A stretch of DNA of 64,000 nucleotides from Ostreococcus lucimarinus (Eukaryota). This document shows positions 34,002-61,600 of the stretch, in pieces; positions within the stretch are counted from its first letter, which is position 1; each line of letters begins with the position of its first letter. The notes under the pieces are model-generated. The model saw only the letters and a list, made by a program, of their open reading frames with translations, did not search any database and was not told the origin of the DNA. The DNA is taken from NCBI GenBank assembly GCA_000092065.1, contig CP000581.1; one strand, written 5' to 3'. The translations under genes were made by a program, and so were the position numbers.

Positions 34002-35000
34002 ATGGACGCGCGAACGCTCAGGGTGATTGAATTAATCGACGCGCTGGAGGAACAGTACCCGGACGCCCCGTCGGCGCCGCGCGAGGCGTTCGTGCACTGG
34101 TCGGAGGACGACGTGCGCGCGTGGTACCACACGCGAGGCGAGGCGAAGCCGCGACGGGACGAGGAGGGCGATGACAAGACGTGGTTCCCAGGACTCGAGC
34201 GAAGCGGAACGAGATGTGTCTTGGGCAAGACGCCCAAGTTGAGAATTTTGTGCTTCCCGAACGCGGGGAACATGGAAGACATGTATACGCACGAAGGCAC
34301 GGGGGCGAGACGCGCGACGTCGCCGTTGCTGGAGTTCGCCAAGACGCATGAGGCAGAGGTATTGGCGGTGCAGTACCCGGGGCGAGGAAATCGTTCGAAA
34401 GAGTCGTGTGCATTTGAGATCGATGAAATCATCCATCCTCTGTTGCCCGTGGTAGCGGGGAAGTTGTCAGAGTGCCCATACGTCGTTGTCGGGCATTCCG
34501 TCGGCTCGTGGATCGCTTACGAGTTCTTGCAACTGCTACGCGCTCGGGGCGTTCGCATGCCCGAGCACGTCTTCCTTTCGGCATTTCCGTACCCAGATAT
34601 TCCTCACGACGTCCGGCCGTGGCGCATAAACGTGCTGTTGGACGAAGAGGGATTCAAAGATGAGTGTCGCCGATGGGACGTCAACGAGCTTGTTTTTGGC
34701 GATATTTGGAAAATTTACCAACCGCTGATGCGCGCAGATTTTCACTTGTTTGACAAATACGATCACGTACACGATGGGAAGGAGAACTTTACATGGCCTC
34801 TGACCGTGTTTCACGGCGAGAGCGATCGGATGATCACGCGCGAGATGTGTCAAGGCTGGGAAACGCACACGACGGGCGAGTTCGAGCTGCTCGCGATCCC
34901 CGGTCATCACTTGTTCCCGCTTCAAAAAGATCAAAAGGCGATGTGGCTTCGAAAAATCGCCGAAAGACTTCAGAACGTCGTCGCGCGCACCGCGGCGTAA
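34002..35000 (+). CDS. Type-II thioesterase (alpha/beta hydrolase, OLAH/SAST-like)
   Basis: 'LRILCFPNAGN' resembles 'FCFPYAGGS'. Nucleophile elbow 'VVGHSVGSWIAYE'. C-terminal 'IPGHHLF' His. Confidence 0.75.
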   Translation: MDARTLRVIELIDALEEQYPDAPSAPREAFVHWSEDDVRAWYHTRGEAKPRRDEEGDDKTWFPGLERSGTRCVLGKTPKLRILCFPNAGNMEDMYTHEGTGARRATSPLLEFAKTHEAEVLAVQYPGRGNRSKESCAFEIDEIIHPLLPVVAGKLSECPYVVVGHSVGSWIAYEFLQLLRARGVRMPEHVFLSAFPYPDIPHDVRPWRINVLLDEEGFKDECRRWDVNELVFGDIWKIYQPLMRADFHLFDKYDHVHDGKENFTWPLTVFHGESDRMITREMCQGWETHTTGEFELLAIPGHHLFPLQKDQKAMWLRKIAERLQNVVARTAA

Positions 35001-36855: not shown

Positions 36856-38223
36856 ATGGGTGCGTGTGCGTCGATGCTGAGCGGTGCACCGGCGGAGGGA
36901 GGAGAAGTGTCGCGATTGGCGGATACACTCGTGCGTCTGGGGGCGGAGCGGAGGACGGTGAACGATGCGCTGCGGTTATTCTGGCGCGCTGATAAAGACG
37001 GGAGCGGGACGCTCGGGTTGAAGGAATTCGCGGAGACGTTTGCGTTGCGCACGCGGAACGCGTTTTTACCGCGTATGATGTCGCTTTTCGACGTCGGAGG
37101 CGACGGGGACATCGGGGCGTTGGAGTTTGTCATGTGCATGGCGCAGTTTCACGAAAGAAGCGCGTCGGCGCACATATATTTCGCTTGGCGACTGTTCGAC
37201 CAAGACGACTCGGGTTCGATGACGATGGAGGAGTTTGAAACCATCATAAACAACTCGATGAGCTACACGGGATCGAATAAAGGTTTCAGCGGTGGATCAC
37301 ATGATCAAATGGGGGACCGCGTCGTTAGAGCTGGCCGCAACGGGGCACGAGTGCGGGTGAAAGGCATGAGACAAATCATCAAACAAGCCGACTTGGACGA
37401 CAACGGCGTGATCACAATCGACGAGTTTAAGGTTCTTTGCGCGAATAGCTCGCATATCGCCGCGCCGGCTTTCGAGCTGTGGAGTGCAGTCGGGGCACAA
37501 TCGAAACCTTGTTGGAAACTGAAGGAAGAGCTCAAGGCGAAAGGCAAGCTTGAAGCAGTACTAGAGATGCTCAGCCCAGCGGCGAGAAAAGCGTTGGGAG
37601 TGAAACGCAAAACGGACGTGGATCGCAAAGATAGGCGTCACGGTGCAGCACGCCGGACGATGGGGAACAACAGAAGAAAGCCAGAACGAAAGATACCCGG
37701 TGACCTCGCGTTCATGGACTCCGTGAAAATAAAAAATGAAGACGACGCTGCGCGCGGTGAGCGGCAGTCGGGCGAGCGGCGCGCGGGCGCGCGAGAACAT
37801 CGAGATCACCGCGAACGCAGTCATCGACATCACCATAGGCATAGAGACGATCGCGAGCACCGTGGGCCTCGCGATGATCGCGCTCGCGATAATCCTCGTG
37901 GTCACCGCGATCATCACTCGGAGCGTCGCAAACATCGACCGGATGATGGATATTACGGACAACCGCCGCCGAACGCGTTCGCGCCGAACCAAGGTCTCGG
38001 CGGTGGTTACGGCGGTAACGACGTGCGGTACGGGGGAAACCAAATGTCACCGTCGCATCAATACGAACAGCAGCGACCACCGATGAGTAATGGTGGTGGC
38101 GGCGGTTACGGCCAACCGCGCGGCGGTCAGCCTCCTCGCCCGGGCGCTCGCGCCCCGTTCGCGGGCGACGGCGACCAAGACGAGCTATTGGCTCAGCTCG
38201 AGCGCGATTTGTACGGCAGGTGA
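36856..38223 (+). CDS. N-myristoylated EF-hand Ca2+-sensor (calcineurin-B/NCS-like) with a long RD/H-rich and G/Q/Y-rich low-complexity tail
   Basis: 'MGACAS' myristoylation consensus. EF loops 'DKDGSGTLGLKEF', 'DVGGDGDIGALEF', 'DQDDSGSMTMEEF', 'DLDDNGVITIDEF'. Tail 'RDHRERSHRHHHRHRDDREHRG...GGGYGGNDVRYGGNQ'. Confidence 0.75.
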   Translation: MGACASMLSGAPAEGGEVSRLADTLVRLGAERRTVNDALRLFWRADKDGSGTLGLKEFAETFALRTRNAFLPRMMSLFDVGGDGDIGALEFVMCMAQFHERSASAHIYFAWRLFDQDDSGSMTMEEFETIINNSMSYTGSNKGFSGGSHDQMGDRVVRAGRNGARVRVKGMRQIIKQADLDDNGVITIDEFKVLCANSSHIAAPAFELWSAVGAQSKPCWKLKEELKAKGKLEAVLEMLSPAARKALGVKRKTDVDRKDRRHGAARRTMGNNRRKPERKIPGDLAFMDSVKIKNEDDAARGERQSGERRAGAREHRDHRERSHRHHHRHRDDREHRGPRDDRARDNPRGHRDHHSERRKHRPDDGYYGQPPPNAFAPNQGLGGGYGGNDVRYGGNQMSPSHQYEQQRPPMSNGGGGGYGQPRGGQPPRPGARAPFAGDGDQDELLAQLERDLYGR

Positions 38224-44309: not shown

Positions 44310-45482
44310 GTGCGCCGCGTAGCCATGGTGTCTGTCGCCGTCGCTCGTCCGCGCGTCGCGCACGCGTCAACACACGCGCGCGAGCGGCGTCAACGCGCGA
44401 GCGGCGCGAGACGCTCGAACGCGCCGCGCGCGTTTTTGGCGTCGTCGACGGCGGTGCACGCGAACGATGCGTCGTCGTGCGCGATGCTGAAACGCGCGAG
44501 TTGGAGAGGTAAATATGCGCTGAATGTGCGCGCGTCGTCGACGTCGAGCGCGTCCGAAGTGGCCGATCGCAACGGCGCCGACGGTGGCGGTGAAGCCAAC
44601 GGGTCGGCGACCACCGGCGCGGGAACCTCCTTCACCGCGCTTGACGATTCGTTTCGCGGATTAGAGGGCACAGAATGGTTTTCGCGTGATTTCTCCGAGA
44701 GTGGCAGACGATTCAGTGAGGTTTTTCCCGTGAGATTCGCCGAAGTGGGTTCCAACGGCGAGGCGACCATGGTGACGATAGCCGACTTGATTCAAGAGTG
44801 CGCCTGCAATCACGCGCAAGGTATCTGGGGTGTCGGTCAATCTATGCCGGCGGAGATGGCGCGAGCAAACTTGGCGTGGGTGTGTACCAGACTTCACTTG
44901 CGCGTGCGCAAGTACCCGAAATGGGGGGAGAAGGTTGCGGTGAGCACTTGGTTCGAACCTCAAGGGAAGATAGCGGCTAGGCGCGACTACGCCATCACGG
45001 ACGCGCAAACTGGAGAATGCATGGGCGAAGCGACGTCGCAATGGGTTGTGTTTAATCTCGGGAGTCGAAGAATGGCGCGCATCCCGAACTCGGTGTTGGA
45101 AGATTTCAAATTCCAATCCTTGCAGCAACAGGTGATGGAGGAAGGATACGCCGCGGATAAGCTCCCAGACGTGTCTGAAGTCGGGGGAGCGTGCGCGGCT
45201 CCCATCACGCATAACGTGCGCCGTAACGACATGGATATGAACGGACACGTAAACAATGTCGTGTACGTTCAATGGCTACTCGAGAGCGTGCCCCCGGAAA
45301 CGTGGGAAAAGCACGTGTTGAGTGAAATTATCTTGGAGTATCGATCCGAGTGCAACTTTGGCGACAGCGTCACGGCGACGTGCTGCGAGATTGAAGAGGC
45401 AAACGATACCTACGTGCTCCTACATAAATTAGCGCGAGGCGAGGGTGAAATAGTTCGAGCAAAGACGGTCTGGAGGAAGTAA
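44310..45482 (+). CDS. FAT: Acyl-[acyl-carrier-protein] thioesterase (FatA/FatB type) with a plastid transit peptide
   Basis: Double hot-dog acyl-ACP TE: 'IADLIQECACNHAQ...ANLAWVCTRLHLRVRKYPKWGEKV' and 'RRNDMDMNGHVNNVVYVQWLLESVP'. Confidence 0.85.
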   Translation: MRRVAMVSVAVARPRVAHASTHARERRQRASGARRSNAPRAFLASSTAVHANDASSCAMLKRASWRGKYALNVRASSTSSASEVADRNGADGGGEANGSATTGAGTSFTALDDSFRGLEGTEWFSRDFSESGRRFSEVFPVRFAEVGSNGEATMVTIADLIQECACNHAQGIWGVGQSMPAEMARANLAWVCTRLHLRVRKYPKWGEKVAVSTWFEPQGKIAARRDYAITDAQTGECMGEATSQWVVFNLGSRRMARIPNSVLEDFKFQSLQQQVMEEGYAADKLPDVSEVGGACAAPITHNVRRNDMDMNGHVNNVVYVQWLLESVPPETWEKHVLSEIILEYRSECNFGDSVTATCCEIEEANDTYVLLHKLARGEGEIVRAKTVWRK

Positions 45483-47708: not shown

Positions 47709-50030
47709 CTACTTTTTATACTCGTATTCGATGCGCAAACGCCGCTCCGTTCCCTCACCGACGGCGCTATGACTTAGCATGTACGTGTCCACCAACGCCT
47801 GTTGCATTTCGATGATGCGTCCCGATCGAGGCAATAGCTCGACAGGCTCGCGATGGGGAATGACGAGCTGCTCGACGGCCATGCGCACCTCTTCCAGGGC
47901 ATCCGTTTCATCCGCGCTCGACGTAGTCGCTCGCTGTCTATTTTCTTGAGCACCACTTCCTCCGTTAAATCCATCACTTGCACCCGTTATGCCTAACATG
48001 GCTTGCAAAGCGCGAACGAGCTGCGCCGAGTTATCTGCCCGCACGGCGTAAATCGGCATACCTCGCGCTCTAGCCGCGTGTCGTAGCCACGTGGACGTCT
48101 TCACTTGCGATTTTGGCGCAATGACCACGCTCGCGTCTTCAAGAAGGTCAACCAAGCACACTCGATCACCCAAGTCCATGCTCTCCATGACGCGCTCCAG
48201 AGCGTCGCGACTAACTTTGAACGGAAACACTCGAAGAGCGTGCGGAGGGCACGTGTTGTCGTCTTCGTCGTCTTCGACGTCGTTCACGATGACGTCTTCG
48301 CCGCCGAGTTCGAAACGCGTGTTATCCACAAACTGTTGCGTCGTCGACGATGATCGACGTCGCGATGCGCTTGCGATTTCTAAAGCCGCGAGCTCAGAGC
48401 TCGATCGAGGCTGGACTTTTTGCGCCGTCGGTCGAGGCGCCGTCGCGTCGTACGCTAGGATTTCTCCAAGAACGCTCGCCTTTCGGCGACTTGTGTACTC
48501 TGCCTCCGTCGTCACCGTTCCATCTTCGTTCAGAACGCGTAGTTCGGTCATCGGCGACTGCCCCGCGAGTAAAGCGTCGACAGAAGCCGCGACGTCGGTG
48601 TGAACTCTCCAAGTGCCGATGTCGAGCATTTCCACGGCGATGGTAAACGTTGGTGGACCCGCCCTTTCGAGCACACTCTTCTGGACCCCTCGTCTACGTG
48701 CTTCGTCGTCGCCAAGAGTGACGCTCACAACACCACCTATCAAATCACATAACGCCGGGTTCTTCAAAACGTTCTCCAGCGTGTGTCCGTGCGCCGTACC
48801 AATCATCTGCACGCCTCGCTCGCTGATGGTTTGCGCTGCGTCCGCCTCTTGCTGCGTGCCGATTTCATCAACCACCACCGTCTGGGGCGTGTGATTTTCC
48901 ACGGCTTCGATGAGCACGAGATGCTGTTCGCTCGCGTTCGGGACTTGCATTCGACGGGCACCACCTATACCGCGATGGGGAACGTCGCCGTCGCCCCCGA
49001 TTTCATTTGACGTATCAACGATGACGACACGGCGAGAATGCTCATCCGACAGAATGCGAGAAATCTCTCGAATAGCCGTCGTTTTTCCTACACCAGGCCG
49101 TCCGAGAAGTAGTATCGAATTATTAAACGTCGTCACCGACGTTTCGGCGTCCAAAACGTCCCTGATAAGTTCGGCAGAACCCGAGATCGCGCGTCCGACT
49201 CGACACGTCGCGCCGATGACTTTGCCGTAACGATTCTTAATCGCGCTTATTCTGTGCAAAGTCCCGTTGATACCCGCGCGATTATCTCGTCCGACGTCTC
49301 CAACCTTTGTCATCATTCTATTCAAATCTTCGTACGTCACGAGCTCGTCCCCGATTGTGGCATCGCCGTCCGGAAACCGCGCCTTTGGTAGTCTTCCCAA
49401 GTCGAGCACGACTTCGGTGAGCTCGAGCCTTCGCGCGTCTTCCGCCAACGCCCGTCGCACGCGCTCGGGCGCCGCGTCGAGCAATAGCGCAATTTCTTTT
49501 TCGCTCGTCACCGCCGCCAGCGTCGCTCGCTTTCGAGCGGCGAGCACGTCCTCCTTCGTCAACGCCAACGCGCCCGCGCTCGAGGACGTCGACGTCGCGT
49601 CGTCGGCGTCGTCGACGGCGTCGCGCCGCGTCGCGCGCCGAGGGCTGGCGCGGCGCCATCGCGCGCTTCGTCGTCCCTTAGTCCACCCGTCGCACCGCGC
49701 GGACGCGGACGCGGACGTCGACGTCGTCGTCGGCGCCCCCCGCATCGCGCGTCGCCGTGTGTCGCGGCGTCCCGCGCGCGCTCGGACCGCCGGACCGCGG
49801 GCACGAGGCACGACTGACTCGCGCGCGTCACAACGCGCGCGCGCGACGAAGGCGACGCACCGACGCCTCGATCGCGTCGTCGGCGTCGTCGTCGAAGTCG
49901 CCGTCGCCATGGGCTCGCCCGGCGGACGCAGCGCCGTCGTCATCGCGTGCTGGTACACCGCCAACGTCGGCGTGCTGCTGCTGAACAAGTACATCTTATC
50001 CGTGTATGGGTTCCGATTCCCGGTGTTCAT
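47709..50030 (-). CDS. Ycf45-like / SpoIIIAA-family R3H-domain P-loop (AAA) ATPase with an S/T-rich plastid-type presequence. The start is probably the internal Met near 49910 or further downstream.
   Basis: 'LLLGRPGVGKTTAIREISRIL' Walker A, 'VVVDEIGT' Walker B, 'QMIGTAHGHTLENVLKNPAL', and R3H-like 'VTYEDLNRMMTKVGD'. Confidence 0.75.
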   Translation of the reverse strand: MNTGNRNPYTDKMYLFSSSTPTLAVYQHAMTTALRPPGEPMATATSTTTPTTRSRRRCVAFVARARCDARESVVPRARGPAVRARAGRRDTRRRAMRGAPTTTSTSASASARCDGWTKGRRSARWRRASPRRATRRDAVDDADDATSTSSSAGALALTKEDVLAARKRATLAAVTSEKEIALLLDAAPERVRRALAEDARRLELTEVVLDLGRLPKARFPDGDATIGDELVTYEDLNRMMTKVGDVGRDNRAGINGTLHRISAIKNRYGKVIGATCRVGRAISGSAELIRDVLDAETSVTTFNNSILLLGRPGVGKTTAIREISRILSDEHSRRVVIVDTSNEIGGDGDVPHRGIGGARRMQVPNASEQHLVLIEAVENHTPQTVVVDEIGTQQEADAAQTISERGVQMIGTAHGHTLENVLKNPALCDLIGGVVSVTLGDDEARRRGVQKSVLERAGPPTFTIAVEMLDIGTWRVHTDVAASVDALLAGQSPMTELRVLNEDGTVTTEAEYTSRRKASVLGEILAYDATAPRPTAQKVQPRSSSELAALEIASASRRRSSSTTQQFVDNTRFELGGEDVIVNDVEDDEDDNTCPPHALRVFPFKVSRDALERVMESMDLGDRVCLVDLLEDASVVIAPKSQVKTSTWLRHAARARGMPIYAVRADNSAQLVRALQAMLGITGASDGFNGGSGAQENRQRATTSSADETDALEEVRMAVEQLVIPHREPVELLPRSGRIIEMQQALVDTYMLSHSAVGEGTERRLRIEYEYKK

Positions 50031-51281: not shown

Positions 51282-53426
51282 TTACACGCTTCTACCTTCT
51301 AGACGTTCTAGACGTGCGAGAACGCGCGCGGTGGACGAACGATTGAATGAGCTGTGTCGAAACTCGACTTCGTGTACGGCATGGTCGGTGAGCTCGCCTT
51401 CGTCGCCTGAGAAATCGAAATGCCCAATGACGAGCGATTCGTCGACACCGTCGTGTTTCGAAAAGCGTCCCAACACGATGGGATACCATATCGCGTCGTC
51501 CTCAGGCATATCTGCATACGGTATTTCTTGTTGTTGAAACCACGTCGGAATGATGTCAGCTGACGCGCGCGCGTGAGTTGGAAACAACTTCGCGACGCTC
51601 GTGCCGTCGCGAAACGCGCACACAAATTCGTGCTCGACGGCGAGACCACCATCTGGCATCCAACCGCGAAATACGAAGCGCGCGGCTTCAAAAAGATCTT
51701 TCGGATCGTTCAAAGCATCGCACGCCAAGGGGTTGAGACCTGCTTCCTCTAGTGCGACGGACCGAGCGACGTCCAGTGGGACTAAATCCTTCTCGCTGTC
51801 GACTTCGGCGATGAAGCCGGTGTAGCGGCCGGCGAATTCGCCGCGCGTGTGCTTCCCCAGCAGGATGCGACCGTTGGCGACGTCCAAAACGAGAAGCTGA
51901 GCAAAACGCTTTGGCGGTCTCGTAAGCTCTGATTTCGGGTACACCTGCTTGTCGATCATATCGGCGAGGTTGTCGCTGGCGCGAGTGACGTTTTGTCCGA
52001 CGTGATCGCCTTGTGTCCGCGGTTCGTACGCTGCATTCAACGGACGATGCGGAGTGACAAACTGTGGAAGTGGCGCAATGACGGCGTCGTCGTTGAGACC
52101 GTTGAATCTCACGAGCGATAATCGATCTCGTCCATCGCGAGATGGTCGAACGCGATGCGGCGTCGCGCGTACGACTCCGTTTGTAAAAATCTCGAAAGCG
52201 TCCGACAGAATGCACGTAAAAATGGCCTCATTCTCGTACGCCGGCGCCGAGCGCCACGCACCATCTCGCCCTTGGAGCTCTAATCCTTCGCACGTCTGAT
52301 GAAGAAGTGTGAAGAATTCAAAGTCTGTGTGCTCCGAGATACCAACTATTTCCACTTTCGACGCGGCGATTCGTTCGCTGCGTCGCGTAGTCGAGTCCTC
52401 CTCGTTCGCTTCGTCATCCACTTTCATCGATGGATATCGCATTGCGCGCATGCTGCAGTGTGACGTATTGCCAAATTTCTTTACCCAGACGTCTTCGTCG
52501 TCGACGTGAAGCGCCTTCGCAAAGCATCGATACAGCGTCCTCGCCGCGCCATCGCACGCGCTGTAAAAACTGCAAAACGCACTTTGCATCGCGGGCACCT
52601 CCACCGGCCAATCCATAGGTCCAAGTCCTCGTGCCGCGTCGTCACCTCGTTCGTCTCGCACTTGCTCAATCTCACATGAGCTCAACTCTCGAACGACATC
52701 AAACGACTCGACGAGCGCGGCTGTTTTCTTTTGGTAAGAGTACTCTTCCAGCAGGGGCACGAAACCACCGCTCTCGTTCGCGTATTGCGAGTGTACGTAC
52801 AGCGCCTTCACGTCTTCTGGCAGCGAGAAGAACGTTCGGGCGATGTCGTACGTGCGCGCGACGTCGAACGGCGCGACGCGCGACGTTGACGCCTCGCCGA
52901 CGTCTCGAGCGTCGAGCTCGAAGTAACCGACACGCTCGCTCGACGTCAGCGCTTCACCCAGACGCGCGATTTCGACGTCGTCGCCGTCCGCGAGCTTGAT
53001 GAGAGATACTCGCGGCACGCTGTCGCTCGCGTGCATGACGCGACGAGCGATCGAACGAGGAGAGTCGTCGCTCACGTCGTCGTGTGACGCGCCGATGCAC
53101 GAAAAACTCCTCACACGACGACGTGGGCGACGACGAATCGAACGACGACGAATCGCGAGCAAGATGACGAACGCGACGAGCGAGCGAGTTATTGGCGTCG
53201 CCCACGACGTGCTGCCACAACGAGCGAAGAAGAAACCGCGACGAGACACAGCGATGACGGAGAGGACGGCTTCGACTTCTTCGGCGGCTGAGGCCGACCC
53301 GACGCCGCTGACGACGGACGATGAGGACGTTCGACGGGGATTCGAAAGCACGGACGCGCGCGTCGTGCGATACGCGCCAGAACACGATGACTTTCGAGCG
53401 CGCGAGGACGAAGACGAAGACGACAT
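51282..53426 (-). CDS. Fusion protein: N-terminal 2-oxoglutarate/Fe(II)-dependent oxygenase (DIOX_N plus 2OG-FeII_Oxy) and C-terminal NUDIX hydrolase domain. The likely true start is near 53066 (MHASDSVPRVSLIKL...).
   Basis: 'HTDFEFFTLLHQ...RATPHRV' (HxD...H facial triad, RxS). Nudix box 'GKHTRGEFAGRYTGFIAEVDSEKDLVPLDVARSVALEEAGL' (Gx5Ex7REVxEExG). Confidence 0.7.
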   Translation of the reverse strand: MSSSSSSSRARKSSCSGAYRTTRASVLSNPRRTSSSSVVSGVGSASAAEEVEAVLSVIAVSRRGFFFARCGSTSWATPITRSLVAFVILLAIRRRSIRRRPRRRVRSFSCIGASHDDVSDDSPRSIARRVMHASDSVPRVSLIKLADGDDVEIARLGEALTSSERVGYFELDARDVGEASTSRVAPFDVARTYDIARTFFSLPEDVKALYVHSQYANESGGFVPLLEEYSYQKKTAALVESFDVVRELSSCEIEQVRDERGDDAARGLGPMDWPVEVPAMQSAFCSFYSACDGAARTLYRCFAKALHVDDEDVWVKKFGNTSHCSMRAMRYPSMKVDDEANEEDSTTRRSERIAASKVEIVGISEHTDFEFFTLLHQTCEGLELQGRDGAWRSAPAYENEAIFTCILSDAFEIFTNGVVRATPHRVRPSRDGRDRLSLVRFNGLNDDAVIAPLPQFVTPHRPLNAAYEPRTQGDHVGQNVTRASDNLADMIDKQVYPKSELTRPPKRFAQLLVLDVANGRILLGKHTRGEFAGRYTGFIAEVDSEKDLVPLDVARSVALEEAGLNPLACDALNDPKDLFEAARFVFRGWMPDGGLAVEHEFVCAFRDGTSVAKLFPTHARASADIIPTWFQQQEIPYADMPEDDAIWYPIVLGRFSKHDGVDESLVIGHFDFSGDEGELTDHAVHEVEFRHSSFNRSSTARVLARLERLEGRSV

Positions 53427-53947: not shown

Positions 53948-55426
53948 TCAACCGAGCCACTCTTCGATGGTCGCCTTCGGTTCGCTGAAGACTAAATCAT
54001 CTTTAGTCAGCGGTAAAGACTCTTCCACGAGCTGCACAAGCTGTCTTCGCAGAGCCATCGTTAGCGCTGGCTGCCGAATCGAAGCGTTGAGCTCGACAAA
54101 CTGCCCGAGCGAACGTTGCTTCAAGTTGCAGCTCCCCAACATCCCGAAATCCGCCACGGATTCGTCCTCGCTCTCCGCGTACAACACCTTGGCGTGCAGC
54201 ATGTCGTCTATGAGAAATATTTTCAAGTTGTTCGAGTCACCGCTTCGCCGCGACGCGTTCACGTCGACCAGTCGTTTGAGCGCCTTGCGATTTGCGTCGT
54301 GATACACGTTCGGCGTTCGAGGGACGATGAGCGTGAGTGACGCGTCGCGTCGCCTCAACATTTCGGCGAGCATATCCGCTCCCATGGAATCAATGTAGGC
54401 CATCGCGACGGAATATTTCGAGTACCTGGTGTCTCGAAGTAACTGCTTCATCGCTTGCTTCACCTCGAAACGCCCGGGAAAGGTCATATATCTAGGGAAA
54501 GTCCAGGCGATTGGAGACCAGCCCGTCGGTAGATTACTCGCAAAAACGATATCTGCGTCGTCGTTCGACGTAATTGTGCGCTCGAAGCTTCCCAATGCAT
54601 ACCGCATGGCGTCCACAGCCGCTCGACCATCCGCTCTAATGGCGAAATCGCGCCAATTTGTAAATCTATCGCCGACGTTGACGCCGCCGAATATAACCGA
54701 CGGCAATCCGGTGCCGTGTTTTCGCTCGACAATCATGAACTTTGCGTGCGTCGCTTGCGAAACCGGTGTGAACGAAAAATGCTCCGCCCCGAGTTCTTCT
54801 TGTAGCGCTTCTAACTCTGCCGTTAACGTCGTCGTCCCTTCGCACCATCGCGTGAACTTGCTCACAACGGAACCGTCCACAGAGCACTTCACGCGCACGC
54901 CTCGCTTGACCGCTCTCTTCATCGCCGCGACGACTTTGTCGCTCGATTTCCCGCGCTCGAACACGTACACGCTGAACTCTACGCTATCGCCCTTACTCGT
55001 CGTTCCAAGTTCACGACACAACGCCTCGACGACGTCGACATACGACGTGAGTAACCGCAGCGGTCTCGCCTTGACCACGCGGGCGCCTTCGTCGAACGAC
55101 CCCGACGACGAGACGTCGTCGTCGAACGAGCGCGATGCCGATCGCGAGCCTGCAAACGAACGACTTCCGACGCGATGGTTTTCTACCGTCGGCGGCGCGC
55201 GGCCGCGCTGCGACGTCTCCGCCGCGTGCGCTCGCACACGATGCCGCGTTGCCGCGTCGCCCCGTCTTCGCGACGCGCGCGTCGACGCGCGCGACCTCGG
55301 ACGTGCGCGAGGCACGATACTCGCGGCGATGCGCGCCGACATCGACGACGCGCACCGCTCGCGCCTCGCGCCTCGCTCTCGGCGGCACGAACGACGCGAC
55401 GCGTTTTGGCGTAACCAACCAACCAA
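53948..55426 (-). CDS. Phospholipase-D-superfamily enzyme with two HKD motifs (cardiolipin/phosphatidylglycerophosphate-synthase-like). Arg-rich presequence.
   Basis: HKD-1 'HAKFMIVERKHG...GGVNVGDRF'. HKD-2 'HAKVLYAESEDESVADFGMLGSCNLKQRS'. Confidence 0.8.
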   Translation of the reverse strand: MVGWLRQNASRRSCRRERGARRERCASSMSARIAASIVPRARPRSRASTRASRRRGDAATRHRVRAHAAETSQRGRAPPTVENHRVGSRSFAGSRSASRSFDDDVSSSGSFDEGARVVKARPLRLLTSYVDVVEALCRELGTTSKGDSVEFSVYVFERGKSSDKVVAAMKRAVKRGVRVKCSVDGSVVSKFTRWCEGTTTLTAELEALQEELGAEHFSFTPVSQATHAKFMIVERKHGTGLPSVIFGGVNVGDRFTNWRDFAIRADGRAAVDAMRYALGSFERTITSNDDADIVFASNLPTGWSPIAWTFPRYMTFPGRFEVKQAMKQLLRDTRYSKYSVAMAYIDSMGADMLAEMLRRRDASLTLIVPRTPNVYHDANRKALKRLVDVNASRRSGDSNNLKIFLIDDMLHAKVLYAESEDESVADFGMLGSCNLKQRSLGQFVELNASIRQPALTMALRRQLVQLVEESLPLTKDDLVFSEPKATIEEWLG

Positions 55427-55597: not shown

Positions 55598-56230
55598 CTA
55601 CGCCGCCGTGCCGTCGGCCAAACTCTGGCGGAGGTTTCGTAAGATCCTCCGCGACGCTCCGGCGAGCTCGCCCGGGATTTCGTTTTCGGCGTCCTCTTTC
55701 GCAACGCCCGCGTTCGCGAGTGCATTCCTTCCCTTTAACTGTAAAACTCCACCCTCCCTATCGTTTTCACCGAGACTTAGGCTCGTGAGATTGTACGCCT
55801 CGTCGAACGCCTTGGCCTCGGCGGCGCCTCCTTCGTGTTTCGTCAGCGCGGTCCGGAGACCGATCACGGACGCGCGCAAAAGGCGGTTCTCCACCTCGAG
55901 CGCGGCGTTGGATTCGCTCAAATCTATGATCACCTTATCCCGCACCTCCTCCGTCCTCGTCGCACCGCGCGCACCGATTTCACCTTTTATTCCCTGTCCA
56001 TCGCGGCCACCGTTCGCGCGCTGATTCCTTCGCGTCTTGGCGGGCGTGAAGTCGTTCGCGGTGAGCAAGAGAAAGAAAAACACGAAGAACATGATGTACC
56101 CACGCTGCGCGTTCGCCGCACGCGGGTCCGTCATCACCGTCATAGCGACGGAACGCGAGCAGCTCCACTCAATGTCGATCGACTGGCACTCTTCGCCCCT
56201 TCTCACTCGCCCACGCGGGCGACGACGCAT
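55598..56230 (-). CDS. Possible type-II membrane protein with a coiled-coil. The real start is probably an internal Met (MTVMTDPRAANAQRGYIMFFVFFFLLLTAN...).
   Basis: Hydrophobic anchor 'IMFFVFFFLLLTA' followed by heptad-like 'AALEVENRLLRASVIGLRTAL'. Weak. Confidence 0.3.
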   Translation of the reverse strand: MRRRPRGRVRRGEECQSIDIEWSCSRSVAMTVMTDPRAANAQRGYIMFFVFFFLLLTANDFTPAKTRRNQRANGGRDGQGIKGEIGARGATRTEEVRDKVIIDLSESNAALEVENRLLRASVIGLRTALTKHEGGAAEAKAFDEAYNLTSLSLGENDREGGVLQLKGRNALANAGVAKEDAENEIPGELAGASRRILRNLRQSLADGTAA

Positions 56231-56310: not shown

Positions 56311-58518
56311 CTATGGCGCCGCGTCTCGTTTCGTCGCTCTCGCCTGTATGTTTTTCGTCAACTCGGCTTGAATCTCGATCAATTCGGCGTTCATGCGCGC
56401 AATGTGCTGTCTTCGCAGTTCTTCCGTTTCAAACGACCCCTTCATAGCCTTGCGGACGCTTTCAGGAGTGTTGTCTCGCACCAAAGGTACGATTGAATCT
56501 CCAATGGCGTCCTCTAAAGCTTCGTACGTCGGCTTCCAAGGCGCCGGCACGGCGTCGTCGAGGCGACTCTTGAACCGTCGGAGCTTGGGCATGAGCGGCG
56601 GCGCCGCCTCCTCGATATTCATCTTGATGGTCTCGAGTCGCTTTTTGAGTTGTTTCATTCGCTCCACTTCGTCAAGCGTCGCTTCAACGCGCATAATTTC
56701 CTGCTGAATCTTAGAGAGTCGGCTCGCTTTGTCCTCCTCGGTAGTCAAGAGCGCGACGTCGTCGGGCTTGCGTCGCACGAGAAGGCGCACGATGCGCTCT
56801 CGAACGCTCTTTCTCCCAGACTTGAGGTCGTTCTGCCTCGCCACATACCTGCGAACCGCACGTCGACGTTTCTGAGTACCTCCGCGCGCGCTCTGTAGCG
56901 CTCTCGTCAGTTCTTCCTCCTCCTGGCGCTTCTTCGCTAACGTTTGGATGTCCATCGGTCCGTCTGTGAGAATGGTGAATCGCCCCTTTGGAATCTCCTT
57001 GAAGTTCTTGTTTACCACGCGCTTTTCACGGTCCAACGCAGCGTACGCAGCGGCATCCAAAGTGCCTGAGTTGGAGATGGACGCACTCGCTCGCGCTGAC
57101 GCCCATTTCCGCTTCTCGTACGATACAACTCGCGTCGTCGGACCGGGCAAGCCGCTCTGTCGGCGGAGCGTGTTGCGCACTTGGCGACTCAGATTCCCCA
57201 CGGCCGGTCCGCCGCAAAAGTAAACCCATGGAATCCACGTGGGGATTCCAAGGATATCTGGATGAGAGTACGAATACAGATGACCGTAGTTGATCAACAC
57301 GATTTCCGCCACGGGCCCGCACACCGCGGTTAAACTAGCCATGAACAGTCCCTGCGCGCTGTTGTCGAAGAAATACCACGTCGTCACCGCCCATACGCAC
57401 AAAAATATATCAATCAAATGGTACGGCAGGAAACCATCCACGAAGGGCGATTGCGGCGACGCCAAAATTCCAGAGACGAGGTATTGAAACGCAAAGACGC
57501 TGATGCACAGATTGACGCTCACCCAGCTCGGCTGCCAACCCAAAGCGGGCTTGCCTTTTGCATTTTCAATCAACTCTGACGTCCTACTCACGATTTGTTC
57601 GGTGCCTTGGAGACCTTTTCGTATCTCAATCTCTCTCGCGCGCTTCACCGACGAGCGAATGCGAAATTCATCGAGACTTGTGTGCCCGAGACCGATGACG
57701 ATTGCCGCGGCGCCAAACAGCGGTGGCACCCACCACCCAGTCTCTAAAACACCATTTTCGTTCACAAACATGATTCGAAACAGGTCCTTCACCGGTTCGG
57801 GGGCTATGAAATTCATGATTGGACCGAACGGCGAGTTCCACAACGGTGCGAATAGGGCATCAAAATGAATTTGCAACGGCGTCGCGTAGTGCAACACGTC
57901 GAATCGCGAGTGTTGGTGGTCGAGTAAAGGCCCCAATATTGCCCCCGCCACGAACATCAACGCCACTTCGTTCGCGAACGCGACGCGCTCGCGCTCGACT
58001 TCTTCTTCCACGATCTCTGGCGTCATCGCCGGAGCGCGTCCCGTGACACCGGCCAACGCATTTCTCTTTCCGTCGTCGCCGTCGCCGCCGTTCGTCGACG
58101 TCGCCGTCCCGCTCGCCGGAGCACCTCCCGTCTTCACGACGCGCGACACCACGCGCGCGGCGTCTTGTCGACGCGATAACGCTTCCATCTCTTCCTCTCG
58201 CTTCGCGCGTTCTCTCGCGCGTCGCTCGCTCTTCGCATTCGTCGTCGACGACGCCGGCGTCGGCTCGGATGTCGCGCGCGCGACGACGCGCGCGCGGGCG
58301 TCGTCGCGCGCGCGACGTCGCGCGCGCGCGTCGGCCGGCGCCGAGACCGCGCGCGCGACGACGCCCGCGCGCATATTCGCTCGAACCCTCGCTCGCGGCG
58401 CGTCGCGTCGCGCACTCGCGTCGCGCGGCGCGCGCGCACCGACCAACGGCTGCGGACGCCCGCTCGGGGCGCGGAACGTTCGTCTCCGAAAGGGCGCATT
58501 GACGATGGCGAACGCCAC
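56311..58518 (-). CDS. INSIG-domain membrane protein with a plastid-type transit peptide and a long C-terminal coiled-coil / basic extension
   Basis: Transit-like 'MAFAIVNAPFRRRTFRAPSGRPQPLVGARAPRD'. INSIG-like 'TGWWVPPLFGAAAIVIGL' and 'YSYSHPDILGIPTWIPWVYFCGGPAVGNLSRQV' (compare human INSIG1 'SAWWVPPCCG', 'YQYTSPDF...IFFAGGITMGNIGRQL'). C-terminal 250 aa are helical and K/R/E-rich. Confidence 0.7.
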   Translation of the reverse strand: MAFAIVNAPFRRRTFRAPSGRPQPLVGARAPRDASARRDAPRARVRANMRAGVVARAVSAPADARARRRARDDARARVVARATSEPTPASSTTNAKSERRARERAKREEEMEALSRRQDAARVVSRVVKTGGAPASGTATSTNGGDGDDGKRNALAGVTGRAPAMTPEIVEEEVERERVAFANEVALMFVAGAILGPLLDHQHSRFDVLHYATPLQIHFDALFAPLWNSPFGPIMNFIAPEPVKDLFRIMFVNENGVLETGWWVPPLFGAAAIVIGLGHTSLDEFRIRSSVKRAREIEIRKGLQGTEQIVSRTSELIENAKGKPALGWQPSWVSVNLCISVFAFQYLVSGILASPQSPFVDGFLPYHLIDIFLCVWAVTTWYFFDNSAQGLFMASLTAVCGPVAEIVLINYGHLYSYSHPDILGIPTWIPWVYFCGGPAVGNLSRQVRNTLRRQSGLPGPTTRVVSYEKRKWASARASASISNSGTLDAAAYAALDREKRVVNKNFKEIPKGRFTILTDGPMDIQTLAKKRQEEEELTRALQSARGGTQKRRRAVRRYVARQNDLKSGRKSVRERIVRLLVRRKPDDVALLTTEEDKASRLSKIQQEIMRVEATLDEVERMKQLKKRLETIKMNIEEAAPPLMPKLRRFKSRLDDAVPAPWKPTYEALEDAIGDSIVPLVRDNTPESVRKAMKGSFETEELRRQHIARMNAELIEIQAELTKNIQARATKRDAAP

Positions 58519-58590
58519 GTCACGTCGCGCGCAACTTCACTCGCGCAGGTCAGGTGACACCGTCCGCGGCGCGTCCGCGGCGCGCGATCG

Positions 58591-58594
58591 ATGG

Positions 58595-58632
<38 letters not shown>

Positions 58633-61600
58633 TCGCCGCACGCGTTCTCCCCGCACGCCGCGGGCGGGGGGCTTTCGGAGGGCGATGGCGACGGCGCGAG
58701 GAAAAGTGGCGCGGCGTCGCGCGGGACCGCGCGAAAAGCGTACGAAGGCGCGAAACAGAGCGTGAAGAAGGCGTACGCGCGCGTGTACGACGACGAGCGG
58801 AGCTTGTTGTGCTTTAGCGACGCGTCCAGGGTGCGACAAATGTGCGCGAAAATCGCGCGAGCCACGAGCTTTCAGGTGTTCGTTTTCGCCGTAGTGGCGC
58901 TTAACGCCGCTGTGTTGGCGATGGAACTTCCCGAGCGCGCCTACGTCGCTCGAGGAGGCTCCGTACCGCTGACCGCGGACGGGTCGTGGGCGTTGCAAGT
59001 GGTTTTTGTCGTCGTCTTCGCGTTCGAAGCACTGGTGAAAGTTATAGCGAGTGGCTTCGCCATCGGATCGAAGGCGTACTTGACGGAGCGAAGCAATATT
59101 TTCGATTTCGTCGTGGTTGTGGTTGGGATCGTAGACTTGAGTAGCTCAGGCTCGAGCGGAGTCGGGACGCTGCGACTGTTGCGCACGATTCAGCCCCTTC
59201 GAGCGCTGAACAAATTCAAATCTGGAAGAATGGTTCTAGAGACGATTCGGAAATCGATTCCGCTCTTGCTCGACGTCGTGGTATTCATGTCGTGGTTCGT
59301 GATCGTTTGCACCGTAGTCGGTATGATGTCGTTCGGTGGTCGCTTGAACTCGCGAGAGTATTCGGGCGCCGGGTCGTCAAACGTCGCGGCGACGGCGATT
59401 TGTAGCACCCTCGTCGCCGACTACCCGACGTCGGCCGCGGCGAGCGCGGAAAGCCCAAATTATCCTTCAGATGAGCTGCTATGCCTGAATCGTAGAAAGA
59501 ATACGCTCGTCTCGAACGATACGTATTGCTGCGATTCCGGCGTGTCACCCGTCGACGGCTTCGTCAACTTTGACGATTTTGCCAAGGGTGCGTTTGTCGT
59601 TTTACAAATTATGACGGTCGATGGATGGAATGAGATCGCATGGCCTACCGCGCGGGCCGCTGGGACGGCGCCTGCGTTGATATTTTACTTCGTTGTCGTT
59701 CTCATCGGAGGTTTCTTTGTGCTTCAACTGTTCACGTCGGTCATTTGCGCGACGTTGAGTGACATCGAAGATGAAAGCGCCTCGATGGATTGCGAGACGC
59801 TCGGTGATGGCGCGACGGGCCTTTCACAAATGTTCGAATCAACGCGACCCTCGGTTTACTCGAAGTCATTCTTGAGCGGCGTTGGATCAACACTCTCGTC
59901 GTTCAGGTTGCCAGGTCAGGATGAAATTGATGGTTCCGAGGGCATGCAGAAGTGGCGACTCAAGGCACTCGCTCTCGTCGCTGACGTTCGATTCGAGTCT
60001 TTCGTGAACATCACCATTATACTGAACACATTTACGATGATGTCAGTGACTGCAGAACCGAATCCGTCGCTGGAGCTATTTAGAGAAAACGCCGAGTACT
60101 TCTTTTTCGCGGTGTTTTGCTCCGAGTTTGCGCTGAAACATTTTGCTGTCGGACCCGTAGCGTACTGGAAGACGACGTGGAATCGACTGGATGGCTTGGT
60201 CGTTCTCTCCGGTATAATTGATATGACACTATCAGCTATAAGCTCTGGATCTGGCGTGAACCTGTCCTTCCTTCGCATACTGCGCGTGTTGAGAGTTTTG
60301 CGCATTGCGCGCGTCTTTCGTAGGAGTACGAGCTTTCAGAAAATATTGCGTGCGGTCGTACTAGGAGCGCAGCGTATTTGGGTGTTTTTATTGGTATGGG
60401 CAATCTTCATGATTATGTTTGCGATCCTCGGTACGCAGCTCTTTTCTGCGAAAGGTGATTTGGACGATGAGAGATTGAATTTCAGAGACTTTTTTTCGTC
60501 CATCGTGACGCTCTTTGTGGTGAGCACGGGCGAGAACACGTTTGAAGTCGCTTGGGGCACTATGAAAGCTGACGGTGACGCGGCGGGACTTTACATGGTC
60601 GTTTGGTGCTTGATCACGACATCGATTTTGGCGCTCGTACTTGGAATTCTTATCGATTGTGTCACCGAAGAAGGTAAAGTTGCATCGATTATCACCATGA
60701 AAGTTCCGCGACGAGAGCGCTTTGCGCGGGAAATGGCTAAATCCATGGGGTTTGACGAAGACGACTTCCCTGAATGGGTTCATCTCAAAGCAAACGAGGC
60801 GTGGACAAAGCGCAATCAAGAGCGCTCGAGGGCGAAGAGCGCAACGGAAGCAGGTTTAGGTCTCGATGAAGACGAAGAGAAGACAGACAGCGACAGCGAC
60901 AGCGACGACGACGAAGTCGAAGGTGATGAAGTAGCGCTACATGTGTTTGGCGATCCGTTCGAGGCGAGGCGCTTGCGCAAAGAACGAATCGCTCAAATGC
61001 GACGCGTCCACGAAGTTGCGGTCGTGCGACATTGGCTCGTGACGCTAGGTTATGAGCATCACTCTGCGAAATCGCTCGAAGTCGCGAAGACGATGCGGCG
61101 GCGATCCGTGATAAAGGCTCGCGAGCGACTGGCCAAGTCGCACAAGGCGAACGAGTTGAAGCGTCGAGCAATTGTTGACAGCATCAGCGCCAAACTTTTG
61201 GATCGTGATGACGTCGATGCGAGTCGCTTAGTTCCACTCAGCGTCCGCTGCATCATGAAAAAGGACGAGGACTTACACGCAGACCTCAACTTGATCGACA
61301 TCAACGGCGACTTTATTCCGCATCATGCCCTCTTTCCCGACAACGACCCCGTAGCTGAGGCGGAATCGTTGGTGCATTACGTGCGAAATGATAACTTTCG
61401 TATAGCGATGTCATTTTACGGCATTGATGAATCCGACGAAAGAGACCAACTAAGACTCAAGGCGCTTCGCTTCGTGAAGCATCCTTGGTTTGACGTTGTC
61501 GTATTGCTCTTGATTGGTGCGAGTTCAGTATTGCTCGCCACGGAAACGAACTCGTTTCCAGCGGCTGACTCGAATATGGAACGGGTATACTTGATTCTCG

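Follow-up and report, generated by a model that had tools for sequence, protein, structure and literature searches.

INSIG is a textbook component of sterol feedback in the endoplasmic reticulum (ER) of animals and fungi, and the plant and algal literature known to us treats the family as absent or irrelevant. What, then, is an INSIG-like gene doing in the photosynthetic alga Ostreococcus lucimarinus? The gene lies in a 64,000-nucleotide stretch of contig CP000581.1 (assembly GCA_000092065.1; hereafter the window, with positions counted from its first letter), where an uninterrupted open reading frame (ORF) of 735 codons occupies exactly 56311..58518 on the minus strand. An original prediction, made from the DNA letters alone, had described this ORF as an INSIG-domain protein fused to a plastid-type transit peptide and a long coiled-coil tail. 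The ORF is real and corresponds to XP_001416041.1 (UniProt A4RSA0) of strain CCE9901, annotated "predicted protein". We find that its product is a genuine relative of INSIG and a member of a pan-algal subfamily. We hold with moderate confidence that it is a plastid-targeted protein with six transmembrane (TM) helices in the INSIG fold, with a core that would bind lipid or a partner protein and a tail that would serve oligomerisation or recruitment.

Family membership follows from profile, pairwise and fold evidence, which agree. The Pfam INSIG profile (PF07281) matches ORF residues 185-446 with a score of 48.4 bits (gathering cutoff 28; E = 1.1e-12) and is covered from position 3 to position 209 of 211. 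A single-sequence search retrieves human INSIG-2 (6m49/7etw) at E = 1.5e-12, and a profile of algal relatives retrieves it at E = 2e-20 over TM2-TM6. An AlphaFold2 model built on 51 homologues has a mean predicted local distance difference test (pLDDT) score of 70.7 overall; within the membrane core the means of 10-residue blocks mostly exceed 85, with values of 70-74 in the TM1-TM2 loop. When this model is compared with the PDB using Foldseek, the only significant match is 7etw_A, which is INSIG-2 in the Scap/Insig complex (E = 1e-4, probability 1.0, target TM-score 0.74), and the predicted six-helix fold superposes on that solved structure. The motifs on which the original prediction had relied are present as GWWVPPLFG and YSYSHPDILGIPTWIPWVYFCGGPAVGNLSRQ, and its assignment to the INSIG family stands. 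The homology is not new in itself, because the Pfam assignment is already carried by database entries. A full-text search of a limited collection of papers found no description of a plant or algal INSIG-like protein.

The likeness to the human proteins INSIG-1 and INSIG-2 (6m49, 7etw) extends from the six-helix membrane fold to individual motifs. The algal protein shares with INSIG-2 WWVPP at the start of TM2, W..FD.S in TM4, Y.Y..PD between TM5 and TM6, and F.GG..GN..RQ where TM6 ends. Of the oxysterol-pocket residues F115 and T136 of INSIG-2, the former aligns with an invariant Phe (F294 in the numbering of the 687-residue protein defined below), the latter with a Phe that makes T136 a non-conserved position. 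D149 of INSIG-2 (WWTFD149RS) aligns with the Asp of TWYFFDNS, and at the level of sequence presence an Asp occupies this position in at least 90% of the 51 family members. The juxtamembrane TM4 Asp (INSIG-1 D205, INSIG-2 D149) is needed for binding of Scap and HMG-CoA reductase. The differences are equally clear. The algal TM1 carries a motif, GPLLDxxHS..VLHY, in place of anything alignable with human TM1; the TM1-TM2 and TM2-TM3 loops are longer than in the human proteins; and the Ostreococcus protein adds a presequence and a charged helix at its N terminus and 281 residues after TM6. The human INSIGs are ER residents, whereas the algal protein is predicted to be plastidial. Chlorophytes, moreover, are not expected to possess Scap or HMG-CoA reductase, the classical clients.

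Other members of the family are less close or less directly comparable. The mycobacterial homologue MvINS (PDB 4xu4), represented by the diacylglycerol-binding NCBIfam family NF047899, is also a six-TM INSIG-like protein, with a conserved GP..E in TM5 and a weak counterpart of the D-x-x-H-type motif at the end of TM1 (GDHSH, compared with LDHQHS in Ostreococcus). Overall it resembles the algal protein very little (E = 0.31 for a single-sequence search, E = 4e-3 for the algal profile), the NF047899 score of 32.5 bits lies far below the equivalog cutoff of 280, and MvINS lacks the extensions. Fungal INSIGs (yeast Nsg1 and Nsg2, fission-yeast Ins1) combine an INSIG core with N-terminal extensions that vary by lineage, and they serve a client enzyme as membrane chaperones or regulators. 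In this general plan they resemble the Ostreococcus protein, but they are ER proteins that act on HMG-CoA reductase and lack a coiled-coil tail at the C terminus.

When 1.84 billion representative proteins are searched exhaustively with the core by HMMER, 677 of them match at E <= 1e-3 and 269 at E <= 1e-10. Organism names, obtained from word-indexed searches and cluster look-ups, place members in prasinophytes and other chlorophytes (Ostreococcus, Bathycoccus, Cymbomonas, Pyramimonas, Tetraselmis, Chlorella, Myrmecia, Haematococcus, Tetradesmus, Chlamydomonas leiostraca, Bryopsis and a pedinophyte), in streptophyte algae (Mesostigma, Chlorokybus, Klebsormidium, Mesotaenium and Spirogloea) and in algae with secondary plastids (Euglena gracilis, the chlorarachniophyte Amorphochlora, the haptophyte Phaeocystis, the brown algae Undaria, Laminaria and Cladosiphon, and diatoms such as Mayamaea). 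All named members come from plastid-bearing eukaryotes, save a few prokaryotes. All algal groups sampled have variants of the motif GP(L/x)xDxxHSxxxVLxY where TM1 ends. In the Ostreococcus protein this motif is GPLLDHQHSRFDVLHY (57886..57933, minus strand), and it is invariant or nearly so in the 51 aligned family members. Human INSIG-2 lacks the motif, and in the mycobacterial homologue GDHSH is a weak counterpart. A crude neighbour-joining tree, computed without bootstrap, separates all algal sequences from human INSIG-2. The gene is a member of a pan-algal subfamily distinct from the ER INSIGs of animals and fungi.

The gene is not a singular fusion: the family is pan-algal and carries lineage-specific additions at the C terminus. 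Most members have 200-340 residues. A charged helical tail follows the core in Mamiellophyceae, Pyramimonas and Cymbomonas and a Cys-rich, zinc-ribbon-like domain follows it in diatoms, with no addition in other lineages. The short proteins of Klebsormidium (KFL_000130110), Chlorokybus, Spirogloea and Haematococcus (200-340 residues) belong to the same subfamily, with 44-50% identity in the core, the TM1 motif and an N-terminal extension before TM1, but they lack both the C-terminal tail and the long TM1-TM2 insertion of the Ostreococcus protein. In the diatom members P0379, P0376, P0380 and P0382 the place of the prasinophyte coiled-coil tail is taken by a CxxC...CPxCxGxG...CxxCxGxG..CxxC pattern, and the proteins end in ...IRELMSRMPD. 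Attempts to assign this Cys-rich domain to a family gave sub-threshold matches throughout (GRXCR1/2_C at 23.3 bits with a cutoff of 26, DnaJ Cys-rich at E = 0.13 and BSD2 at E = 2.6).

A search seeded with the protein of Spirogloea, from the lineage sister to land plants, gave 117 matches, among which there was no embryophyte member of this subfamily. A single land-plant protein emerged, MQM08531.1 of Colocasia esculenta (270 residues; NMUH01004143.1; L017, 6001-7346). Its gene contains introns and has plant genes, Glyco_hydro_1 and NifU, on either side. This protein and a second one of Pyramimonas parkeae (P0416 and P0432 for the pair) form a divergent paralogous subfamily, with 40% mutual identity and 25% identity to the core of the Ostreococcus protein. 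MQM08531.1 keeps the TM1 motif (LGPLLDGIHSRVGLLHY) and has a transit-peptide-like N terminus, and it does not keep WWVP. Land plants seem to retain the divergent paralogue and to be without the subfamily described here.

Whether the Ostreococcus protein has a presequence depends on where its translation starts. The GTG at 58518 with which the ORF opens is a product of mechanical ORF listing, and the first in-frame ATG lies at 58374 (ORF codon 49), giving a protein of 687 residues. Database protein P0069 has exactly this sequence, and P0001, a gene call from a Tara Oceans metagenome, departs from it at 2 residues. The RefSeq model XP_001416041.1 (P0068) instead starts at 58186..58188 (minus strand; ORF Met-111), has 625 residues and begins MEALSRRQD. 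If that start were correct the presequence would be an annotation artefact and the protein would have no targeting peptide. Apart from the RefSeq model itself, this explanation can appeal to the position of the upstream ATG, which is only 217 bp from the ATG (58591) of a divergently transcribed neighbour, and GC periodicity at third codon positions, in a region that is GC-rich throughout, does not discriminate between the two starts. We nevertheless judge it highly improbable. The residue aligned with the RefSeq Met is Arg in one close orthologue and Ala in another (P0004 and P0008, 66% and 61% identity), the sequence just upstream is conserved in both, and N-terminal extensions precede TM1 in all full-length members of the family. 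For these reasons translation most likely starts at the ATG at 58374, the start also used by other gene calls and database entries, and the most likely coding sequence is 56311..58374 (687 codons plus stop). The 48 codons upstream (58375..58518) contain no in-frame ATG, follow an in-frame stop at 58538-58540 and are probably a non-coding 5' leader. On the orthologue-supported start, the RefSeq model appears to lack the 62 N-terminal residues encoded in 58186-58374. All residue numbers below refer to the 687-residue protein.

From this start the protein begins with MRAGVVARAVSAPADARARRRARDDARARVVARA, followed by TSEP. Residues 1-34 (58273..58374, minus strand) form a putative organelle-targeting presequence with a net charge of +7 that is disordered in the AlphaFold2 model (pLDDT 31-35). 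The presequence had been predicted to be rich in Arg, Ala, Ser and Pro; this holds for Arg and Ala, with 10 and 12 in the first 35 residues, but not for Ser and Pro, with one each, and part of the predicted stretch lies upstream of the first ATG. All Mamiellophyceae orthologues carry such an extension, whose first ~30 residues include 0-2 Asp/Glu and 4-10 Lys/Arg. It evolves fast, with 25-37% identity to close orthologues compared with 68-75% for the core. The Mamiellophyceae N termini end in a recurring RRVVxxA-(S/T/A), which resembles a V-x-A cleavage site, and continue into a polar or acidic region. In Ostreococcus this end, VVARA↓TS, is similar to ALNVRA↓SS(TSS) in the N terminus of an acyl-ACP thioesterase encoded in the same window, and acyl-ACP thioesterases are a plastid-located family. 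The N termini therefore have the features of green-lineage transit peptides, namely a basic, acid-poor and poorly conserved sequence of constant character with a V-x-A-like end, and these features also fit mitochondrial presequences.

Relatives with probable complex plastids carry a second kind of signal. In 31 non-redundant relatives, mostly metagenomic proteins, a hydrophobic N terminus resembling a signal peptide is followed by an extension of 40-100 residues before TM1. By a crude (-3,-1) rule for cleavage, the residue after the site is Phe in 16 of the 31, compared with 6.0 ± 2.0 in shuffles of the same region (maximum 13 in 1000), and Phe, Trp, Tyr or Leu in all except one (30/31; shuffles 20.1 ± 2.4, maximum 28). 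Examples are EVSA↓FLPT (P0380), TASA↓FVDQ (P0389), VES↓FAPP (P0308) and SGA↓FAPP (P0387). Proteins of complex plastids are recognised by just such an ASAFAP-type bipartite signal, with an aromatic residue or Leu, typically Phe, at +1 and a transit-peptide-like region after it (PMC4329603), and the secondary-algal homologues carry it. Because of the character of the Mamiellophyceae N termini and the ASAFAP-type signals in these relatives, a plastid is, on this indirect and comparative evidence, the most likely destination. The plastid transit peptide of the original prediction is accordingly plausible, with the reservation that a mitochondrial presequence would look similar.

Several points weigh against a plastid protein that works in the manner of INSIG. 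The plastid and mitochondrial presequences of green algae overlap in their properties and are hard to tell apart, and the Ostreococcus presequence contains three Asp. The cleavage test is crude and home-made, and the complex-plastid origin of the mostly metagenomic relatives is itself deduced. A signal peptide alone would also be compatible with the ER. On the side of the core, TM1 fails to align with human INSIG-2, and INSIG-2 T136 is replaced by Phe. A pattern-limited scan of GTDB with one genome per species turned up no cyanobacterial homologue. Finally, a lipid-adaptor mechanism is our best guess by pure analogy.

Between the presequence and the membrane core lie a conserved charged helix (residues 46-78; 58141..58239, minus strand; block mean pLDDT from 57 up to 89), found as RRRDAARVVSRVVK in Ostreococcus-clade orthologues, and a Gly/Ser/Thr/Asp-rich stretch modelled with low confidence (residues 79-118). 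The six-helix core, supported by pLDDT, hydropathy segments and the Foldseek match, comprises residues 119-406 (57157..58020, minus strand; Pfam match at 57181-57966). It contains a 45-residue insertion in the TM1-TM2 loop (57751..57885, minus strand) that is specific to Mamiellophyceae, appearing as an alignment gap in all other members; it is placed on the side opposite both termini and modelled as short strands and helices (pLDDT 70-87). The TM2-TM3 loop (57526..57669, minus strand) is basic, with a net charge of +4, and longer than in other INSIGs. Because the loop charges follow the N-in/C-in pattern seen in INSIG, both termini and the tail are predicted to lie on the positive side of the membrane.

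The region after TM6 had been described as a coiled coil of about 250 residues. Its 281 residues are indeed charged and mostly helical, but a sustained heptad pattern is lacking. A linker of 69 residues (407-475; 56950..57156, minus strand), with pLDDT below 50 for residues 419-475, contains the conserved block IPKGRFTIL, seen as P(R/K)GKxTV across Mamiellophyceae. The tail proper (residues 476-687, 212 residues; 56314..56949, minus strand) is 39% Lys, Arg, Asp or Glu, has a net charge of +14 and is modelled as helix from 476 to 684 (pLDDT 50-87), broken into at least nine helices with Pro-rich breaks. Only residues 541-580 (56635..56754, minus strand) have a statistically supported heptad pattern, with a score of 18.1, by a crude and simple scoring, against a cutoff of 15.6 set at the 95th percentile of shuffled tails. 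This segment falls within a predicted helix (residues 546-589) and contains a conserved LKxLKxRLE block. A Pro-rich break, AAPPLMPK (56584..56607, minus strand), follows it and is conserved as DAAPPxLPK in Ostreococcus, Bathycoccus and some Micromonas-like orthologues. The long C-terminal helix (residues 651-684; 56323..56424, minus strand; pLDDT 81-87) is a possible second coiled-coil segment, with a heptad score of 13.6 that lies below the shuffle threshold. Among Ostreococcus-clade proteins the tails are 44-67% identical; for Bathycoccus and the Micromonas-like relatives the figure is 21-27%, and searches of the tail against Pfam and NCBIfam gave no significant match.

INSIG and its bacterial homologue are lipid-binding membrane proteins, and INSIG contacts its clients within the membrane. 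We propose that the Ostreococcus gene encodes a nuclear-encoded six-TM protein of INSIG fold whose short, fast-evolving, Arg/Ala-rich presequence most likely directs it into the plastid. There it would reside in the inner-envelope or thylakoid membrane. According to the positive-inside rule, the stromal side would hold both termini, the tail and the basic loop between TM2 and TM3. By analogy with INSIG and the mycobacterial homologue, the core probably binds a membrane lipid, contacts a partner membrane protein through the TM3/TM4 face, or does both; this face keeps the Phe and the juxtamembrane Asp that are important in INSIG-2. The Mamiellophyceae-specific charged helical tail, with its one clear coiled-coil segment, could oligomerise the protein or recruit soluble partners. 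The exchange of this tail for a different soluble module in diatoms would fit a constant membrane core with a variable effector.

The presequence and the core each invite other interpretations. Taken by itself, the Arg/Ala-rich N terminus with few Ser or Thr would also fit a mitochondrial protein, and the overlap between the two kinds of green-algal presequence would then place the Mamiellophyceae proteins in the mitochondrial inner membrane. This we think very unlikely, given that the diatom, brown-algal, haptophyte, chlorarachniophyte and Euglena homologues start with hydrophobic signal peptides and that the V-x-A↓S/T end resembles the N terminus of the plastid acyl-ACP thioesterase of the same window. 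It is also quite unlikely that the protein is an ER or nuclear-envelope INSIG orthologue with canonical sterol or isoprenoid feedback, in which the tail would be a cytosolic scaffold and the N-terminal extension, like those of Nsg1 and Nsg2, simply disordered in the cytosol. Canonical INSIGs have, to our knowledge, no cleavable signal peptide, whereas the relatives combine one with a 40-100-residue extension and a Phe-enriched +1 position, a pattern of plastid and not of ER proteins (PMC4329603). The N-terminal region behaves as a targeting peptide, changing fast at constant composition, and the named eukaryotic members all bear plastids. Chlorophytes are, as far as we know, without the cytosolic mevalonate pathway and hence without HMG-CoA reductase, the classical client. 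An ER location nevertheless draws support from the solved structures, among which INSIG-2 (E = 2e-20) is far closer than the bacterial homologue (E = 4e-3), from conservation of the Asp needed for Scap and HMG-CoA reductase binding, and from the lack of a cyanobacterial relative in the pattern-limited scan; the signal peptides of the secondary-algal relatives, too, lead first to the ER.

A different kind of alternative concerns activity and applies wherever the protein is located. The core could be an enzyme or transporter acting on a membrane lipid through polar residues that are conserved and lie on the membrane face away from the termini. D152, H155, S156, H162, Y163, E206, E211, T212, Y367, Y369 and D373 are invariant or nearly so in the 51 sequences, and by the predicted topology all fall in the end of TM1, the TM1-TM2 loop or the TM5-TM6 loop. 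The D-x-x-H motif recurs in the mycobacterial diacylglycerol-binding homologue, and a Chloroflexi homologue sits in a conserved gene string between an AhpC/TSA gene and a Cys/Met pyridoxal phosphate (PLP)-enzyme gene. Against this, we know of no catalytic activity for any INSIG-family protein, and YxYxxPD and WWVP are shared with human INSIG-2, where they are structural. We regard this alternative as unlikely and continue to prefer a plastid-targeted INSIG-fold protein that binds lipid or a partner.

Where the algal family came from is a separate matter. The prokaryotic scan recovered nine distant homologous loci in Chloroflexota, Binatia, Myxococcales and Planctomycetota, with 26-39% identity over the best aligned segment. 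An origin from the cyanobacterial endosymbiont is not supported, because this pattern-limited scan yielded no cyanobacterial homologue. Closer to the algal family than the bacterial homologues is a 225-residue INSIG-like protein of Candidatus Helarchaeota, an Asgard archaeon (GCA_013375455.1; L018 and L019, 6001-6678), with E = 3e-47 to the algal profile and 35% identity to the Ostreococcus core. Its gene lies on gene-dense, prokaryote-like contigs in two independent assemblies, next to genes for methylmalonyl-CoA mutase and B12-binding, SDR and URO-D proteins, and could represent a horizontal transfer or an ancestral form. In three Chloroflexota metagenome-assembled genomes (L002, 2465-4801; L004, 2299-4657; L006, 2453-4772) genes for an AhpC/TSA thiol peroxidase, an INSIG-like protein of ~190-200 residues and a Cys/Met-metabolism PLP enzyme overlap in this order, with a divergent zinc alcohol dehydrogenase gene upstream. 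These three genomes are possibly closely related, so conservation of the gene string may not be independent.

The window has a GC content of ~60% and its genes are densely packed. Pfam assignments confirm the PLD-like gene and two thioesterase genes that had been noted elsewhere in the window: a PLD-like protein (PLDc_2; 53948-55426, minus strand), the acyl-ACP thioesterase (44310-45482, plus strand) and a thioesterase/alpha-beta hydrolase (34002-35000, plus strand). Other Pfam-assigned genes encode a 2OG-Fe(II) oxygenase (51282-53426, minus strand), an AAA (Spore_III_AA-like) plus PTPase protein (47709-50030, minus strand) and an EF-hand protein (36856-38223, plus strand). INSIG-like, PLD-like and Archease genes are likewise adjacent in other Ostreococcus clades and a Micromonas-like genome, whereas Bathycoccus lacks this arrangement. 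We considered and rejected a functional meaning for the neighbouring lipid genes, which provide no evidence of function because such ordinary micro-synteny is expected among the generally collinear nuclear genomes of Mamiellales.

Directly downstream of the INSIG-like gene is a 210-residue ORF (55598-56230, minus strand) that is also called in a metagenome contig and is without a Pfam match. Its position is taken by an acyl-ACP thioesterase gene in another Ostreococcus-like clade. On the other side, the divergently transcribed large gene starts at 58591 (plus strand), runs past the end of the window and encodes 1803 residues in the matching metagenome contig, beginning MAPSPSPSPSPSPSS. Relatives of this gene, of the PKD/Ion_trans-channel type, lie beside orthologues of the INSIG-like gene. 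The 217 bp between the two ATGs imply a very short bidirectional promoter, and a (GCGACG)n hexamer repeat at about 58600-58650 encodes an SP repeat of the divergent gene product.

A practical outcome of this work is the suggestion that the RefSeq model of the INSIG-like gene is truncated at its N terminus. More tentatively, and as an extension that we think unlikely to hold, the family could be an ancient plastid counterpart of the ER INSIG system, a lipid-sensing adaptor in plastid membranes. It would govern how a plastid membrane enzyme, perhaps one of isoprenoid/carotenoid or galactolipid synthesis, is stabilised, assembled or retained. Such an adaptor would have acquired lineage-specific C-terminal effectors, a coiled coil in prasinophytes and a Cys-rich zinc-ribbon module in diatoms, and its main subfamily would have been lost toward land plants while the divergent paralogue was kept. 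If so, the Asgard relative would bear on the origin of the eukaryotic INSIG fold. Should a plastid role hold across green algae, diatoms, brown algae, haptophytes, euglenids and chlorarachniophytes, the INSIG fold would have a second role, older or independently recruited, in organelle membrane homeostasis. Ecologically dominant phytoplankton would then carry an uncharacterised plastid membrane regulator, one that could show how plastids sense or organise their own lipids.

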